This document shows positions 1,602-57,369 of a stretch of DNA of 64,000 bases, in pieces. The DNA is from an uncultured bacterium (GTDB lineage: Bacteria; Oederibacteriota; Muellerivitia; Muellerivitales; Muellerivitaceae). The notes under the pieces are model-generated. The model was not told the DNA's origin, did no database searches, and saw only the letters and a list, made by a program, of their open reading frames with translations. The stretch's first letter is position 1. The number at the start of each line of letters is the position of its first letter. The DNA lies in the NCBI GenBank assembly GCA_964529445.1, contig CAZGWJ010000001.1, forward strand, positions 14,863 through 78,862. Direction: 5' to 3'. A program made the position numbers and the translations under genes.

Positions 1602-1805
1602 CCTAATCTCCTCTTGAGAAATTGTGCCGCCCGGGTGGGAGGGGTGGAGCGTGGGGGCGGTCTGACGTCGAAATCGGGGTTCACGGCGGGGGAAGGGGAT
1701 CCCTCGACGCCGCAAACACGTCCGCTTTTATACAGCATTTTCAGGGGTTTCTCAAAAGTAATGACCGTGACATTCCTTCGAAAAAGCCAAAAAAACCAAT
1801 ACAAA

Positions 1806-1880
1806 GCCAACGCGAAGCCGTCCGCCTTTGGCGAGACCTCGCCATCAAGGGCTCTGGATGGCGGGCAGAGCCGCAGAGAA
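1806..1880. repeat. About 75-nt intergenic element, copy 1 of 2. The second copy is at 6321..6395, about 90% identical over the first roughly 60 nt.
   Basis: Shared run gccaacgcgaagccgtccgcctttggcgagacctcgccatcaaggg(c/t)tctggatggcgggc. It contains the dyad GGCGAG-AC-CTCGCC and a second hairpin GCCATC..GATGGC. Confidence 0.8.
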
Positions 1881-6239: not shown

Positions 6240-6257
6240 GTCGACCTCCTTATATTA

Positions 6258-6268
6258 GATAATACTAA
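6258..6268. promoter_or_regulatory. Second copy (inverted) of the 11-bp TATTAGTATTA box, upstream of arsR
   Basis: taatactaata is the reverse complement of the box at 5915..5925. It is embedded in ttatattagataatactaatattctattatt. Confidence 0.35.
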
Positions 6269-6320
6269 TATTCTATTATTTGTCAAGGGGCAAATGGCGA
6301 GGATAACGGCTTAATTCAAC

Positions 6321-6395
6321 GCCAACGCGAAGCCGTCCGCCTTTGGCGAGACCTCGCCATCAAGGGTTCTGGATGGCGGGCGAAGTCGCGAAGAA
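6321..6395. repeat. About 75-nt intergenic element, copy 2 (see 1806..1880)
   Basis: gccaacgcgaagccgtccgcctttggcgagacctcgccatcaagggttctggatggcgggc is near-identical to copy 1. The distal part is degenerate. Confidence 0.8.
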
Positions 6396-6512
6396 CTGCA
6401 TGGATCGGAGACGGAAACGGCCTGAGATTGCCACACCTCAGACCACGCCTACCCGCCCTGAGCGAGGCCGAAGGGTCGGCGCTGAGGTTCACAATGACGG
6501 ATATAGCACAAA

Positions 6513-30947: not shown

Positions 30948-31128
30948 AAACAACGGATCTCACGAACCCCTCTCCCTTGATCCCTCCCCCGCGAGCAGAG
31001 GAGGGAGATGGTTTTTCCCTCGCCCGTTTACGGGAGAGGGCCGAGCCGCCCGAGGCCACCCGCCGAGGGCGAAGTTGGCTCGCACAGATTCAGGGAATCT
31101 GCGAAGGGAGAGGGGGCCAAGGCAGTGG

Positions 31129-32910: not shown

Positions 32911-33146
32911 GACGCTCCTCCTTCAAGAAGGCCCGAAGCCCTCTATATTCCCCGTGGCAACCCGCCCGGGGTTGGGCGAGAGTTTAACAACGCAGGCAAG
33001 CAATAACAACAAATATCCCCCGTTTTTCGAGTCCTGCGCTTTCGGGGGGGCCGATGGGGGAAGGATTCTTCGGGCTGGGCGTTATGGGTGTGAAAGGTTT
33101 GAAAAGTGTGAAGGTGTGAAAGGGCAGGAAAAAGATGAACTTTTGG

Positions 33147-33192
33147 GTTGTTCTCCGCGTCTCTGCGTTTCCGCGGTTCCCGTTCCTGTGTT
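33147..33192. repeat. Dispersed CTCTGCG-decamer element, abutting the stop of the 564-aa gene
   Basis: gttgttctccgcgtctctgcgtttccgcggttcccgttcctgtgtt. Confidence 0.65.
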
Positions 33193-34887: not shown

Positions 34888-35035
34888 GGTCCCTCGTTGC
34901 GACGAACGGTTGGCTGATTATACACCGGGGTTAAAAAAGGAGGGCGGCTGAACACCCACAATTACCGCAGAGTCACAGAGGCCTGTCGATCGAGGAAGGA
35001 TCATCATGCCGTCAGAAGAAGTAAGATCTCTGTGT

Positions 35036-35085
35036 CTGAGCGCTTCTGCGGTTCTCGTTGCCGTTCCGCGGTCGTATCGGAATCC
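35036..35085. repeat. Dispersed CTCTGCG-decamer element
   Basis: atctctgtgtctgagcgcttctgcggttctcgttgccgttccgcggtcgt. Confidence 0.6.
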
Positions 35086-35116
35086 ATCCCCTCCATCGGT
35101 GGTTAAAATGGCTTGA

Positions 35117-35165
35117 GTTGTTCTCTGCGGCTCTGCGCCTCTGCGGTTCCCGTTTTCGTGTTGTC
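35117..35165. repeat. Dispersed CTCTGCG-decamer element (three tandem units), abutting the queD stop
   Basis: gttgttctctgcggctctgcgcctctgcggttcccgttttcgtgttgtc. Confidence 0.65.
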
Positions 35166-35646: not shown

Positions 35647-35685
35647 TACCGCAGAGAACGCAGGGATCGCAGGGAACAGCTAAGA
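35647..35685. repeat. Dispersed CTCTGCG-decamer element (inverted orientation)
   Basis: accgcagagaacgcagggatcgcagggaacagctaagaccc. Confidence 0.6.
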
Positions 35686-38975: not shown

Positions 38976-39007
38976 TTTTGGAAGTTGAGTCACCCTCGAT
39001 CGTCTTT

Positions 39008-39036
39008 CCCTGTGACCTCTGCGTTCTCTGCGGTCC
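39008..39036. repeat. Dispersed CTCTGCG-decamer element upstream of the Lpd-like gene
   Basis: cccctgtgacctctgcgttctctgcggtc. Confidence 0.6.
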
Positions 39037-40335: not shown

Positions 40336-40352
40336 CCCAACATGACCATTAG

Positions 40353-40418
40353 CCACCGATGGATGGGGATGGATCCGCCTTCGGCGAGATCTCGGCACCA
40401 ATGTTAATTGGTGACGGA
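40353..40418. repeat. Structured intergenic element GATGGATGGGGATGGATCC + CCGCCTTCGGCGAGATCTCGGC core + hairpin CACCAAT-gttaa-ATTGGTG. An inverted homologue is at 53591..53652.
   Basis: The core matches the CCGCCTTTGGCGAGACCTCGCC core of the 75-nt elements at 1822..1843 and 6337..6358. Confidence 0.7.
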
Positions 40419-40610
40419 CACCGATTAGGCTTCATCGGTCATCCCGAGACGGATTTCGTGAGGGATCCCCGGTTCTGCCCATTCGTGTGTAGGGCCTCGC
40501 CCATGGCATGGTTTGGTAGCGCTTCCACCCTATTTGCCGTTCACTTCATTCTGCACGCCTGTTGTATCATTCCACTCACGACATTCAACCCTTTCGAAGG
40601 CGGTGCCTGA

Positions 40611-42410: not shown

Positions 42411-42432
42411 TTCCTCGCCCCGCTCCCTTTGT

Positions 42433-42456
42433 CCCTCCCCCGCTTGCGGGGGAGGG
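42433..42456. repeat. GC hairpin CCCTCCCCCG-CTTG-CGGGGGAGGG followed by GCAATTCC. Same family as 2062..2085.
   Basis: Both copies are followed by gggcaat(c/t). Confidence 0.55.
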
Positions 42457-51895: not shown

Positions 51896-52930
51896 TTGGA
51901 CACCCCCCTTCGACCCTATTCCCCCCTCTCCTTCCTCAAGGGACCCGTCTTCCTCTGGGTCCTTTGGACCGCTGTCATCGGCGGCGTGGCCTGGTGGTAC
52001 ACCCGCGACCTTTTCATCGCCCAGGCCGTGGGGGGTACCGGCGCCATCGCCCTTCTCCTACATTCCATCTGGCTCAAGGTGCGCCTCGACAGCCGCTGGC
52101 TCGTCGATCTCCAGGTGTTCCTCGTCCGCACCGGCGCCTTGTCCGATCAGCACCGTGTGAAGCGCATCTTCATGCCCTGGGAGGCGGGTGCCGCCCGGAG
52201 GAAATTCCTGGCCTCGACCCTGGAAAATGTGCGCGACATGGAAAAGAGGATGCACGAGGCGCGTCATGCCCTCGACAAGTTCGTGGGGACCAAGGCCTCC
52301 CAGTTCGCCGCGAAATACGCTTCGGGCAACCAATGGGGCGGGGAGATGGTGCCCGTCTATGTCCTTTTCGCCGATGTGCGGGGGTTCACGCGCATGACGG
52401 AAAAATTGAAGCCCACCGAGACCGTCACCTTCCTGAACCGCTTGTTTTCGGCCCTCGAGGAGGTGGTCCGGGAATCCGGCGGCGAGGTCAACAAGTACAT
52501 CGGGGATTCCATCCTGGCTTTCTTCCCCCGCTCACTCGAGGATGAGGCCCCGGCCGTCAAGCGGATCCTACTCGGAGCCCTCCGGATGATGGACCGGTTC
52601 CTCGAGATCGACGCGAAATACAAGAGCGATTACAGCGTGACGCCGGAGGTGGGATTCGGCATGGGCTTGGCCGCGGGCGTGGCCGTCCTCGGCAACGTGG
52701 GGTCCATGAACCGCATGGAGTTTACGCTGGTGGGCGATACCGTGAATACGGCCTCCCGCCTCTGCTCCATCGCTGAGCACGGCCAGATCCTCGTGAACGA
52801 GGAGATGGCCCGGGTCGCGGAGGGGATGTTCCGCATGGAGGCCCTGGGGGCCGTCAAGCTGAAGGGGAAGGCCGAGCCGGTCGTTCCCACCGTGATCATG
52901 GGGGAGAAACTGCAGCCCGGGCTGGCATGA
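51896..52930 (+). CDS. Membrane-anchored class III adenylate cyclase (paralogue 1)
   Basis: Two N-terminal TM helices, then the cyclase homology domain (CHD): FADVRGFT (metal Asp), NKYIGDS (metal Asp plus Lys), a Thr in the LVGDTVNTASRL region (Lys/Thr pair, so adenylyl-specific). Confidence 0.8.
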   Translation: MDTPLRPYSPLSFLKGPVFLWVLWTAVIGGVAWWYTRDLFIAQAVGGTGAIALLLHSIWLKVRLDSRWLVDLQVFLVRTGALSDQHRVKRIFMPWEAGAARRKFLASTLENVRDMEKRMHEARHALDKFVGTKASQFAAKYASGNQWGGEMVPVYVLFADVRGFTRMTEKLKPTETVTFLNRLFSALEEVVRESGGEVNKYIGDSILAFFPRSLEDEAPAVKRILLGALRMMDRFLEIDAKYKSDYSVTPEVGFGMGLAAGVAVLGNVGSMNRMEFTLVGDTVNTASRLCSIAEHGQILVNEEMARVAEGMFRMEALGAVKLKGKAEPVVPTVIMGEKLQPGLA

Positions 52931-53411: not shown

Positions 53412-53590
53412 GCCGAACGACAGTGAGGAGTTAGCCCGTTCGACTCCTTTCAGTCGCTCAGGGCGCGGCGACTGGGACGCCGCGAAGTGAGGAGTTGAAG
53501 GAAGAACGGCAGTTGATAAACCCACGTCGATAGTCGATCCGGTTTTCCCTCCCGAAGGTCTTTCCTCCAAGTCCGTGTCGTATCGGAACC

Positions 53591-53652
53591 CGTCACCGAA
53601 TGCTTTCGGTGACGAGGTCTCGCCAAAGGCGGATCCATCCCATCCATCAGTG
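53591..53652. repeat. Inverted homologue of the 40353..40418 element: hairpin CGTCACCG-aatgcttt-CGGTGACG + GAGGTCTCGCCAAAGGCGG core + GGATCCATCCCATCCATC
   Basis: Its reverse complement reads gatggatgggatggatccgcctttggcgagacctcgtc, and copy 3 reads gatggatggggatggatccgccttcggcgagatctcggc. Confidence 0.7.
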
Positions 53653-53753: not shown

Positions 53754-54818
53754 GTGAGCGCCCCCATGCCCGAGTCCCCCAAACCGCGGTTTCCCGGTTT
53801 TCTCCGATCGCTCCTGCCCTGGCTTGCCTGGCTGGGCGTCAGCGCCGCGGTCGGGGTTTTCCTCTCGGCGGCCTTCAACAACAGGGATGTCTTCCTGTGG
53901 GCGGCCGGAACCGCAGCGGTCGCCCTGCTGGTTTTTCGTTGGGCCTATGACGCTTACCGCCTGCTGTCCGTGATGGATCTCTTCTATCGGCATCATATGC
54001 TTCCGGCCGTCCTCCGGCGTCCCTGGATCTTCTGGCCCTGGGGACCTGCACTGGGCTTGAGAATCGTCCTCCGCGCGACCGTGCACGAGTACCAGAAGGT
54101 CTCCAAGAAGATGCACGAGGCCACGGGGGCGCTCGAGAAGTTCGTGGGCGCAGGCGCGGCCGAGCGCAGTATCCGGGCCGCCGCGAAACCGGCCATGGGC
54201 GGGGAATCCCGGAGGGTCTTCTGCCTGTTCGCGGATGTCCGCGGCTTCACGCGCATGACCGAGCGCCTCAAGCCGGAGGAGACGGTGGATATCCTGAACC
54301 GCATCTTCACCGAACTGGACGCCGTCATCGTCCAGTACGGGGGAGAGATCAACAAGTACATCGGGGACGCCGTTTTCGCGTATTTCAGGTGTCCCTACGA
54401 CAACGAGGAGGTCGCGGCCCGCAACGTCCTGCGCGCGGCCTTGAGGATGCAGGAGTCCTTCGACGCCTTGAACGTGAGGATCCGGAACGCCTCCTACAGC
54501 GCCCCGGTGGAGATCGGGCTGGGCATCGGGTTGACGGCGGGAACGGCCATCCTGGGCAGCATGGGCAGTGCCAACCGGATGGAATACACCCTCATCGGCG
54601 ATGTCGTGAACCTGGCCTCCCGGCTGTGCGCCATCGCAAAACCCCTTGAAGTGCTCGTGAACGAGGAGATGGCCGAGATGGTGCAGGAGTATTTCGACAT
54701 GACCTCCCTGCCCCCCGTGGAGTTGAAGGGGAAGACGGGCCTGCAGGTCCCCTATGTCATCGTCGGCGAGAGGATGATGCTGACCAAGGGGCTCGCCGAG
54801 AAGGGAAAACGTCTTTGA
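53754..54818 (+). CDS. Membrane-anchored class III adenylate cyclase (paralogue 2)
   Basis: FADVRGFTRMTERLKPEET...NKYIGDAVFAYF...LIGDVVNLASRL. Confidence 0.8.
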   Translation: MSAPMPESPKPRFPGFLRSLLPWLAWLGVSAAVGVFLSAAFNNRDVFLWAAGTAAVALLVFRWAYDAYRLLSVMDLFYRHHMLPAVLRRPWIFWPWGPALGLRIVLRATVHEYQKVSKKMHEATGALEKFVGAGAAERSIRAAAKPAMGGESRRVFCLFADVRGFTRMTERLKPEETVDILNRIFTELDAVIVQYGGEINKYIGDAVFAYFRCPYDNEEVAARNVLRAALRMQESFDALNVRIRNASYSAPVEIGLGIGLTAGTAILGSMGSANRMEYTLIGDVVNLASRLCAIAKPLEVLVNEEMAEMVQEYFDMTSLPPVELKGKTGLQVPYVIVGERMMLTKGLAEKGKRL

Positions 54819-55870
54819 ACCGCATTCCTTCCGAAAAGGTTCCTCCGCCGCGGGAACACCGGCCTGGGCGGGATGGTGCCGTCGAGGCGGCGTTCATCCT
54901 CTTCGCCCTTCTGGGGGTCGCCGGGATCCTCTTGTCCGCGAACCGGGATTCCTTGCCAGCCGCCTGGAGGATCGCCGCTCCCTGGATGACGGGTCTGGGG
55001 GTCTTGGGCCTGCTTTGGTGGTGTGGCGCATCGCTGGTGATGCTGCTCCAGCACCAGCTGGATGCGGTCAAGGCCCTTCCGGCCGGCTTCCAGCGCATGA
55101 GGTTGTGGCAGGTCGGAACCCCGCTGGATGGATTCCACCGCCTGGCAACGGCACTCGCGAAGGCGCAGGTCGAAAGGGATGAACGGATCGCTTCCCTTCA
55201 GGCCAGCCATGACCGCTACGTCGGGACCACGATGTCGGATCGGGCGCGCCGCATGGCCTCCCAGGAGGAACTGGGCGGCGTCAAGAGGCGCGTCTTCGTC
55301 ATGTTCTCCGACATCCGCGGTTTCACCCGCATGACCGAGCAGTTGAAGCCCGAGGAGGTCGTCGAGGTTCTCAACATCTGTTTCACGGAGTTCGAGAAGG
55401 TGATCCGCGAGAACGGGGGGGAGATCAACAAGTACATCGGCGACGCGGCGTTCGCGTATTTCCGGATGCCGCACGGCGATCTCGAAGCGGGGGTCCGGGC
55501 CGTTCTTCGCAGTGCGGTGAAGATGCAGGAGCGGTTCGATTTCCACAACTCCCGATTCAAGGTCTCCTACAGCAAGCCGGTCGAGATCGGGCTGGGGCTC
55601 GGCGTGACGGCGGGGGAGGCCATCCTCGGGAACATCGGTTCGCCCCAGCGCATGGAGTTTACCCTGATCGGGGACGTGGTGAACCTGGCCTCGCGGCTTT
55701 GCGGCATCGCCCGGCACGGGCAGATCCTCGTCAGCGAGGAGATGGCCGAGATCGCGAAGGCCTGGTTCGAGCTTTCGCCCCAACCGGAGGTGCAGTTGAA
55801 GGGAAAGCTGGTGCCCCACCGGCCTTACGCGGTCGTGGGGGAACGGATGGGTTTCGGGAGGGATATGTAG
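54815..55870 (+). CDS. Membrane-anchored class III adenylate cyclase (paralogue 3). The TTG start overlaps the upstream stop.
   Basis: FSDIRGFTRMTEQLKPEEV...NKYIGDAAFAYF...LIGDVVNLASRL. Confidence 0.75.
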   Translation: MNRIPSEKVPPPREHRPGRDGAVEAAFILFALLGVAGILLSANRDSLPAAWRIAAPWMTGLGVLGLLWWCGASLVMLLQHQLDAVKALPAGFQRMRLWQVGTPLDGFHRLATALAKAQVERDERIASLQASHDRYVGTTMSDRARRMASQEELGGVKRRVFVMFSDIRGFTRMTEQLKPEEVVEVLNICFTEFEKVIRENGGEINKYIGDAAFAYFRMPHGDLEAGVRAVLRSAVKMQERFDFHNSRFKVSYSKPVEIGLGLGVTAGEAILGNIGSPQRMEFTLIGDVVNLASRLCGIARHGQILVSEEMAEIAKAWFELSPQPEVQLKGKLVPHRPYAVVGERMGFGRDM

Positions 55871-57206: not shown

Positions 57207-57369
57207 AGCATCATTCTTGGCTTCTGGTCTCGAAGGGTTCGGCCCTCTCCCGTGGTACATCCCCCGGACGGGGGGCAAGGGGCGGGGGGGATGCCGTTGA
57301 ATTTCCCTCTCCCTCGACGGGAGGGGGAAGGGTGAGGATCCGATCCCGGGTTGCGCGAAGGGAAACACC

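Follow-up and report, generated by a model that had tools for sequence, protein, structure and literature searches.

The window analysed here is a 64,000-nucleotide stretch from an uncultured bacterium of the Oederibacteriota (assembly GCA_964529445.1, contig CAZGWJ010000001.1, positions 14,863 to 78,862 of the forward strand). At four intergenic sites it contains a short palindromic repeat, the third copy of which lies at 40374-40418. This repeat is a multi-copy double-hairpin unit that occurs across phyla, comes and goes as a block with exact ends and stands in no fixed relation to genes. Based on the properties described below, we propose that a very short, non-coding and non-autonomous mobile element is present as a single copy at each site, resembling repetitive extragenic palindromes (REPs) and their inverted doublets (REPINs), a reading to which we would give a probability of about 0.6. 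The repeat family is previously undescribed; it is not a member of any named family, nor is it a gene-control site.

When the window was searched with the core pattern CCGCCTTYGGCGAGAYCTCGCC, allowing up to three mismatches, exactly four matches were found, against a chance expectation of 0.01; none of 100 shuffled windows reached four. The core is free of mismatches at 1822-1843 (+) and 6337-6358 (+) and has one mismatch each at 40375-40396 (+) and 53611-53632 (-). The four intergenic sites listed in a preliminary description of this DNA are thus borne out, and their coordinates stand, except that the third site begins at 40375 and not at 40376. The neighbouring genes named there, for H+-pyrophosphatase (hppA), an ArsR-type helix-turn-helix (HTH) regulator, the GH10 enzyme and a class III cyclase, are confirmed as well; the flanks further include cydB beside hppA, a dihydrolipoamide-dehydrogenase-like gene beside the GH10 gene and a 114-aa open reading frame (ORF) beside the cyclase gene. 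The copies are spaced 4.5-34 kb apart, and all but one of them run antisense to the co-directional genes on either side. The repeated object itself proved to be different from the one first described. Instead of a 22-bp dyad, or two structured sub-families with architectures of 65-75 nt, there is a single 45-nt unit placed inside two different flanking repeats: copies 1 and 2 have 88 nt in common at 90% identity (1798-1885 and 6313-6400), and copies 3 and 4, inverted relative to each other, have 60 nt in common at 78% identity (40366-40425 and 53582-53641). Accordingly, the span 40353-40418, flagged as one object, consists of 21 nt of another repeat (40353-40373) followed by the true unit (40374-40418), and GATGGATGGGGATGGA, taken for a prefix of the element, is part of a separate carrier repeat that is seen without the unit in relatives. 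The four copies are listed below; the slash marks the junction of the two halves, and L-numbers denote fetched loci, close relatives having been fetched via flanking proteins.

1821..1865, + strand: unit copy 1, 45 nt, TCCGCC-TTT-GGCGAGA/CCTCGCC-ATCAAGGGCTCTGGAT-GGCGGG (core match, fold)
6336..6380, + strand: unit copy 2, 45 nt, one apex base different from copy 1 (core match, fold)
40374..40418, + strand: unit copy 3, the flagged site, 45 nt, TCCGCC-TTC-GGCGAGA/TCTCGGC-ACCAATGTTAATTGGT-GACGGA (core match, fold, empty site in L120)
53589..53633, - strand: unit copy 4, 45 nt, TCCGCC-TTT-GGCGAGA/CCTCGTC-ACCGAAAGCATTCGGT-GACGGG (core match, empty site in L248, folding z-score -5.5)

In the window, the 45-nt unit reads 5'-TCCGCC-N3-GGCGAGA/YCTCGYC-apex-GRCGGR-3', and its general layout, from a T to a purine, is 5'-T CCGCC N3 GGCG(A)GA / Y C(T)CGYY apex RRCGG R-3'. 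The first half forms a hairpin with a 6-bp stem, a bulged A and a 3-nt loop (pairs T-1:A15, C1:G14, C2:G12, G3:C11, C4:G10 and C5:G9, with A13 bulged). The second hairpin has a tip that is either a loop of 3-5 nt or an additional stem and that measures 16 nt in all four window copies; in copy 3, the two hairpins correspond to 40374-40389 and 40390-40418. The reverse complement of hairpin 1 has the shape of hairpin 2, with a bulged T instead of the bulged A; the unit therefore consists of one 6-bp bulged hairpin in two inverted copies with zero spacer and with the dyad as their seam. Units centred on AT read the same on both strands. In other words, the dyad of the preliminary description is the junction at which the 3' arm of hairpin 1 abuts the 5' arm of hairpin 2. 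The inverted repeat GGCGAG-N2-CTCGCC, ascribed to all four copies, is perfect in copies 1 and 2, whereas copy 3 has CTCGGC and copy 4 CTCGTC.

Support for this anatomy comes from a comparison of 169 units, 117 of which are distinct. Unit length varies at one place only, between CTCGYY and RRCGG; among distinct units the main size classes are 33 nt (n = 44) and 45 nt (n = 20), those of 32, 34, 36 and 42 nt are smaller, and some units are longer. Because MAFFT mis-gapped units of mixed length, pairs were counted in a stems-only alignment in which the tips had been replaced by N. Over the 117 distinct units, Y16:R6' is C-G in 79 cases, T-A in 29 and T-G in 4; Y21:R2' is C-G in 107, T-A in 8 and T-G in 2; and Y22:R1' is C-G in 108, T-A in 4 and T-G in 5. 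Paired variation is found even within one of the supposed sub-families of the window, copy 4 having C16/G6' and T21/A2' where copy 3 has T16/A6'. Under the two-hairpin model, three pairs comprise 21 cells changed on both sides, a result that is far above slid controls and was reached in none of 500 shuffles. We also considered a nested or T-shaped fold, in which an outer CCGCC:GGCGG stem encloses a hairpin made by the dyad, and rejected it. This model has no double-sided changes and 10 mismatched cells at the co-varying positions, as the compensatory changes at 16:6', 21:2' and 22:1' become C-A mismatches, and its apparent outer-stem extension is no better than base composition predicts. The nested form is the minimum-free-energy fold of the 33-nt consensus; for all four window units, minimum-free-energy folds of single-stranded DNA (ssDNA) give the same two hairpins with a bulged T. 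Pairing of both 16:6' and 17:5' means that T18 must bulge, and the variant CTTCGCC...GGCGAG in L232 (T17:A5') supports this bulge. Hairpin 1 was mostly fixed by the search patterns, and its variation was judged on copies found by proximity alone. In these, the loop is free (TAT, GAA, GTA, TGT, CTT), and two unselected copies have compensatory variants, TCCGCT-TAT-AGCGAGA in L136 (T5:A9) and CCCGCC-TTT-GGTGAGG in L201 (C-1:G15). The change in L136 leaves hairpin 1 intact and breaks the dyad. The covariation analysis that the preliminary description had suggested thus supports both hairpins through compensatory changes and does not support the dyad.

The behaviour of the unit as a discrete block is seen in two close relatives, in which the carrier repeat is empty at the positions orthologous to copies 3 and 4. 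In L120, whose flanking Pyr_redox protein is 89% identical, the site that corresponds to copy 3, right after the stop codon, holds an empty carrier: ...GCCACAGATGGATGGGATGGA/CACCGATAAG aligns with ...GCCACCGATGGATGGGGATGGA, the unit TCCGCC...GACGGA and CACCGATTAGG in the window, which sets the boundaries of copy 3 to within a 3-nt GGA ambiguity. L248, whose flanking cyclase is 96% identical, has the carrier without the unit in the orthologous spacer of copy 4: ...GTCGTATCGGTG/TCCATCCCCTCCATCC... aligns with ...GTCGTATCGGAA, the 45 nt and TCCATCCCATCCATCA... in the window. A target-site duplication is found in neither comparison. Because the carrier is empty at both orthologous positions, the unit is an exact 45-nt (T...R) insertion or deletion without target duplication. 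The carrier features of the window are as follows.

40350..40373, + strand: left arm of the carrier at copy 3, GCCACCGATGGATGGGGATGGA, not part of the unit; the carrier is uninterrupted in L120
40419-40429, + strand: right arm of the carrier at copy 3, CACCGATTAGG
53577..53588, - strand: right arm of the carrier at copy 4, TTCCGATACGAC
53634-53652, - strand: left arm of the carrier at copy 4, CACTGATGGATGGGATGGA
35071..35102, - strand: empty carrier in the window, CCACCGATGGAGGGGATGGA/TTCCGATACGAC, junction between 35083 and 35082

The carrier, GCCACYGATGGAKGGGGATGGA/YWCCGATAYG, is a second repeat family; the 45-nt unit, where present, sits at one and the same position inside it, and carriers that lack the unit also occur. 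No fold is predicted for the carrier by itself, and the empty carrier of the window has no significant fold (z = 0.5). Besides its orthologous site, L120 holds two further empty carriers; carrier sites in the relatives are at 2910, 11037 (-) and 12451 (-) in L120 and at about 1755-1800 in L248.

Copies 1 and 2 lie in a different surrounding, of which no empty version was found.

1798..1820 (also 6313-6335), + strand: left flank common to copies 1 and 2, AATWCAAMGCCAACGCGAAGCCG, from repeat comparison
1866-1885 and 6381-6400: right flank common to copies 1 and 2, related to a CGCAGAGAAC module repeated elsewhere in the window

Copy 1 is located 220 nt upstream of the hppA start codon (1600, minus strand) and 66 nt beyond a conserved -35 box. 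Two relatives, L125 and L126, keep a near-identical hppA promoter and leader of about 65 nt and, unlike the copy 1 region, have no unit upstream. This block (window 1700-1772, - strand) has putative boxes TTGAGA-N17-TATAAA at 1727-1755 of the minus strand and a GC-rich leader, and is near-identical though the CydB proteins of the relatives are only 76-77% identical; it appears to be a conserved promoter plus leader and might hold a regulatory element. Copy 2 lies 97 nt upstream of the start codon of the arsR-like gene (6239, minus strand). Directly upstream of the same start codon there is a perfect AT-rich dyad, ATATTAG-N6-CTAATAT (6252-6271), which seems a more plausible operator for the arsR-like regulator than the GC-rich unit.

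The unit is not confined to this genome. We scanned genomes, one per species, for exact matches to CCGCCTTNGGCGAGANCTCG; the exact core of 18-20 bases is present at at least 117 genome loci and, with a stricter pattern, at at least 120 metagenome loci. Among the genome matches listed, about half are chance occurrences inside coding sequence of high-G+C bacteria, recognisable because they have G at the N positions and lack the closing arm, and about 53, from about 35 metagenome-assembled genomes (MAGs) or single-cell genomes, are true units with a common layout. Several copies are present in some MAGs. The true units belong to Planctomycetota (Pirellulales, Planctomycetales, Phycisphaerales, Sedimentisphaerales), Omnitrophota (including a single-cell genome), KSB1, WOR-3, Ignavibacteriaceae, Firestonebacteria and Saccharibacteria, and the G+C content of the unit-bearing genomes is 36-58%, that of the window being 63%. 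A phage or plasmid vector was considered and dropped, as the unit is essentially absent there: it was found in one of 2.9 million viral contigs and in none of the INPHARED reference phages, and PLSDB plasmids gave only chance partial matches. In a text search of the literature the core sequence string was not found, and keyword searches yielded only general REP papers. A known RNA family was ruled out by scans with the Rfam 15 covariance models, a check proposed in the preliminary description, in which tRNAs alone reached the gathering score over the window and 18 loci; at E <= 10, nothing meaningful was found around copies 1 and 3, and there were two sub-threshold chance matches overall. With no Rfam match and with an orientation that is unbiased relative to genes, the idea of a dedicated small-RNA family is not upheld.

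As for orientation, the flanking ORFs are both opposite to the unit in 43 cases, both in the same direction in 38, divergent in 18 and convergent in 15, counts that are based on crude gene calls. The neighbours in 53 loci are unrelated housekeeping genes: an all-against-all BLASTP of 1,002 ORFs from these loci found no recurrent neighbour family, and Pfam and NCBIfam scans of 150 flanking ORFs gave 185 Pfam families, none of them recurrent and no transposase among them. Together with the exact 45-nt indel at two orthologous sites, the multi-copy occurrence across phyla and the either-way orientation, this supports the MITE-like (miniature inverted-repeat transposable element) option of the preliminary description. 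Units also meet each other and other repeats. In L185 (5677-5840), at least five units form a head-to-tail array with a 36-nt period and no spacers, and the contig ends inside it; in L164 a unit sits at the centre of another unit, and in L232 in the hairpin 2 tip of another. In L018 and L108 the unit occupies the tip of CGTC-type REP hairpins (ATTCCCRC...GYGGGAAT), in L014 one unit stands beside such a hairpin, and in L070 and L098 a hairpin-1 monomer is found in the tips of other hairpins. Such nested and tandem arrangements are typical of repeats that insert into one another. CGTC-type repeats, for example GGATTCCCGC...GCGGGAATGAC and GTCATTGCGAG...GCAATC, flank the unit in a number of low-G+C MAGs (L014, L018, L023, L064, L106, L108).

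A search of all loci (1.74 Mb) with a regular expression for HUH/Y motifs revealed no recurrent family and a single ORF resembling a REP-associated tyrosine transposase (RAYT). This gene (L070:971-1531, from an Omnitrophota MAG) encodes 187 aa with NHIH ... YIINNP motifs and matches NCBIfam NF047646 with E = 7.7e-13, below the curated cut-off, and no Pfam family. On both sides of it (890-1600) lies a hairpin ATCAGCG...CGCTGGAT, and the tip of the downstream one contains a monomer of the unit's hairpin 1. The gene shows that RAYT-like enzymes exist in these lineages; it provides no tie to the 45-nt unit. Two small GIY-YIG ORFs, one about 190 nt downstream of a unit, in an insert in a tRNA gene, and the other about 1.3 kb from another unit, were also considered as linked proteins and rejected, neither being linked to the unit. 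The tRNA gene is intact in L030 (1940-2025) and interrupted in the syntenic L094 (7150-7600) by the insert, which codes for a GIY-YIG protein of 95 aa and resembles an intron or a homing-endonuclease insertion, unrelated to the upstream unit.

The closest kinds of known repeats are REPs with their bacterial interspersed mosaic elements (BIMEs) and REPINs (PMC6006769, PMC3733652), which RAYT (TnpA-REP) tyrosine transposases mobilise, and the CGTC superfamily of REPs. Like REPs and BIMEs, the unit is an imperfect palindrome outside genes, of small size (20-45 nt), rich in G+C and without coding capacity, with a bulged base, loops expandable to extra stems, G-T stem pairs, clusters, nesting and high copy number; like a REPIN, it consists of two REP-type palindromes in an inverted doublet. 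Its units of 32-45 nt, with four intergenic copies in 64 kb and several per MAG, are extragenic and multi-copy in the way REPs are. On the other hand, the unit starts with TCCGCC after variable bases (the last three being CTG, GTG, TTG, CCG, GGA and others) and has no GT[AG]G foot, its hairpins abut without a spacer, its core is near-identical across phyla where classical REPs are species- or genus-specific, and no RAYT gene flanked by the unit is found in the 1.74 Mb of fetched loci. According to Di Nocera et al. (2013; PMC3733652), REPs have loops of variable length, G-T pairs and close dimers, and the cross-phylum CGTC superfamily, which lacks a dedicated transposase and includes Neisseria dRS3 and Rickettsia RPE-4 and RPE-6, is recognised by an unpaired CGTC tag, an 8-9-bp stem starting with AT, a 4-5-nt loop and a CCA tail. 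The unit is similar to this superfamily in having a similar sequence in distant phyla, no known dedicated transposase and dimers, and partially also in its boundary, since about 60% of units are preceded by G and the boundary then reads NGTC-CGCC; the two repeats co-occur in L018, L108 and L014. Yet the stems of the unit are 6 bp long, GC-rich and bulged, and it has no unpaired CGTC tag, AT start or CCA tail.

Other kinds of elements are less similar. Derivatives of IS200/IS605 (PATEs, 'peel and paste') share with the unit the lack of target duplication and of classical cut-and-paste terminal inverted repeats, hairpins with extrahelical bases and hints of strand-specificity. The left and right hairpins of IS200/IS605 are direct copies, cleavage takes place 10-19 nt from the hairpins and insertion occurs 3' of a fixed tetranucleotide; the unit hairpins, in contrast, are inverted and terminal, and its left flanks have no common tetranucleotide. 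The unit ends, TCCGCC...GGCGGR, are inverted repeats as in a classical DDE MITE, but the target duplication of such elements is missing from the two orthologous comparisons. Integron attC sites are recognised as a folded single strand and have a variable terminal structure of 3 to >80 nt. The unit likewise is an imperfect palindrome with a variable terminal structure and extrahelical bases, but it has no R''/R' GTTRRRY cores, its variable part is inside hairpin 2 only and not between inner repeats, and there is neither a cassette array nor a nearby integrase. It also differs from an intrinsic terminator, as hairpin 2 is followed by CAGAGCC, CGAAGTC, CACCGAT and TTCCGAT, without a U-tract, in the four window copies, three of which are antisense. 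Because it lacks the GT[AG]G and CGTC tags, the AT-start stems and the CCA tail, and because it does not conform to IS200/IS605, MITEs, attC sites or terminators, we set the unit apart from the named families.

If each copy is indeed a REP/REPIN-like mobile element, the unit would fold on one DNA strand during replication, and the folded form would be cut and pasted by a trans-acting enzyme encoded elsewhere in the genome; if neighbouring genes are affected, for instance through an RNA hairpin in their transcripts, this would be secondary. An analogy with REP/RAYT and IS200/IS605 systems can be drawn from the bulged hairpins, from a weak strand signal and from the fact that targets are not duplicated, and an HUH tyrosine transposase of the RAYT or IS200/IS605 type is the best candidate for the enzyme, a tentative assignment with the odds somewhat against it. 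It is tempting to speculate, at slightly longer odds still, that the units form an ultra-short (32-45 nt) double-hairpin mobile family, with a 22-base core near-invariant in at least seven phyla, whose movement or selection depends on machinery not yet known. The latter might be a trans-acting nuclease or transposase that has so far escaped recognition and is common to Planctomycetota, Omnitrophota and neighbouring lineages, or else a host enzyme of universal occurrence that acts on bulged DNA hairpins, and the elements would prefer to insert into other repeats and hairpin tips.

A number of observations weigh against a REP/REPIN-like mobile element. The unit lacks GT[AG]G, the defining tag of classical REPs, and it ends at the feet of its hairpins, unlike IS200/IS605. 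The 22-base core stays near-invariant over genomes of 36-63% G+C, whereas REPs normally differ between species, and this could mean that a conserved host factor selects for it. The unit has no linked enzyme, the sole RAYT-like gene in 1.74 Mb of loci being flanked by a different hairpin. All three filled carriers hold the unit in the same orientation and with related tips, so that gene conversion between carriers could give the filled and empty pattern without transposition. On the written strand, wobble pairs outnumber C-A mismatches by 13 to 5, which weakly hints at selection on one strand, and this strand could be RNA. In addition, the gene calls in the loci are crude, and most of the family was collected by a pattern that fixes hairpin 1.

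These observations bring other explanations into consideration. The passive one holds that the palindrome is copied or erased among carriers by gene conversion, or lost by hairpin excision, and that its presence in several phyla results from old inheritance and from horizontal transfer of flanking DNA. Besides the common orientation and related tips of the filled carriers, the 12-25 nt of homology on each side between filled and empty carriers and the 3-nt GGA microhomology beside copy 3 speak for it. We nevertheless regard it as unlikely, since the core lies in unrelated flanks in each lineage (AATCCGTG arrays, TTCTGCC arrays, tips of CGTC-type REPs, centres and tips of other units), since no usable microhomology exists at the boundaries of copy 4 and since a near-identical core would be hard to keep across phyla of very different G+C content without an active process. 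An element that is primarily RNA is given the same low weight. Its two hairpins would act in transcripts as a stabiliser, a processing site, a terminator or a protein-bound small RNA, and this function would drive the spread. A role as RNA hairpins is known for REPs (PMC3733652), both hairpins show compensatory changes, G-U-type pairs are in excess over C-A-type mismatches on the written strand, and the doublet has an equivalent structure on either strand, so that the missing orientation bias does not exclude a hairpin function. However, hairpins of ssDNA would produce compensatory changes equally well, and Rfam families without a match at any threshold, window copies without a U-tract after hairpin 2, a presence that differs among near-identical relatives, an orientation and position without preference and the tandem and nested copies all speak against a function in RNA.

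The extreme conservation of the core across at least seven phyla and the lack of a linked transposase speak for the possibility that the unit is a domesticated DNA site to which a conserved host protein binds, as gyrase, IHF or DNA polymerase I do at BIMEs; the conservation of this protein would account for the invariant core. This seems a little less likely again, for there is no known candidate protein, orthologous sites can do without their copies, and the copy number and arrangement look like those of a selfish repeat. Far less probable than any of these is an operator, an option raised in the preliminary description, where a dimeric regulator would bind GGCGAG-N2-CTCGCC upstream of the hppA, arsR, GH10 and cyclase genes. 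It is true that this 14-bp palindrome with its constant 2-bp spacing is the most conserved part of the unit and that all four window copies lie 5' of some gene. Nonetheless, the unit is missing from three of the four orthologous intergenic regions (hppA, GH10, cyclase), in which real promoter blocks such as that of hppA are kept. Covariation links CTCGCC to the GGCGGG arm that follows downstream, over a spacer of 3 to about 60 nt, and not to GGCGAG, and the dyad is imperfect in copies 3 and 4 and broken in L136, which retains hairpin 1. Moreover, the neighbours in the 53 other loci are unrelated, units are also found downstream of genes, between convergent genes, in tandem and nested, and the arsR-like gene has an AT-rich dyad of its own.

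The results have consequences for annotation, as GC-rich palindromes of this kind are not to be read as operators, riboswitches or small RNAs; the units also break assemblies, as in L185, and seed spurious ORFs. After the CGTC REPs, this would be the second tiny palindromic repeat whose sequence is preserved between phyla although no transposase is linked to it, and the question of which agent moves repeats of this sort becomes sharper. The exact filled and empty alleles provide defined substrates, with both strands, the bulged base and the carrier target, that could serve to find the responsible enzyme and to gauge mobility in natural populations.

Several other features of the window and its relatives were observed. 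The class III cyclase gene next to copy 4 is one of three tandem paralogous adenylate/guanylate cyclase genes (51896-52930, 53766-54818 and 54815-55870), and the same arrangement is present in the relatives L248-L250. The best named homologues of the window proteins, from Verrucomicrobiota, Zixibacteria and Planctomycetota, are 41-55% identical. Short contigs that match parts of the window identically are present in the ENA assemblies ERZ27257488, ERZ27257495 and ERZ27257504. Degenerate short-module repeats, CCGCAGAGAAC / CGCAGAGNCGCAGAG, are found on both strands in many intergenic regions (2186-2235, 33143-33192, 35018-35067, 35113-35162, 35648-35676 and 39006-39034), and in other phyla the unit is bordered by comparable arrays of CACAGAG or AATCCGTG (e.g. 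in L063, L014 and L039). The idea that CsrA-type GGA sites are present in the flanking oligomer repeats was dropped because the flanks vary in motif and strand between lineages. Finally, GC-rich palindromes CCCCTCTCCC...GCGGGAGAGGG lie downstream of genes at 2047-2085, 30967-31005, 42418-42456 and 57242-57280, with related ones in L120 and L121, and probably represent another hairpin repeat or a terminator family.

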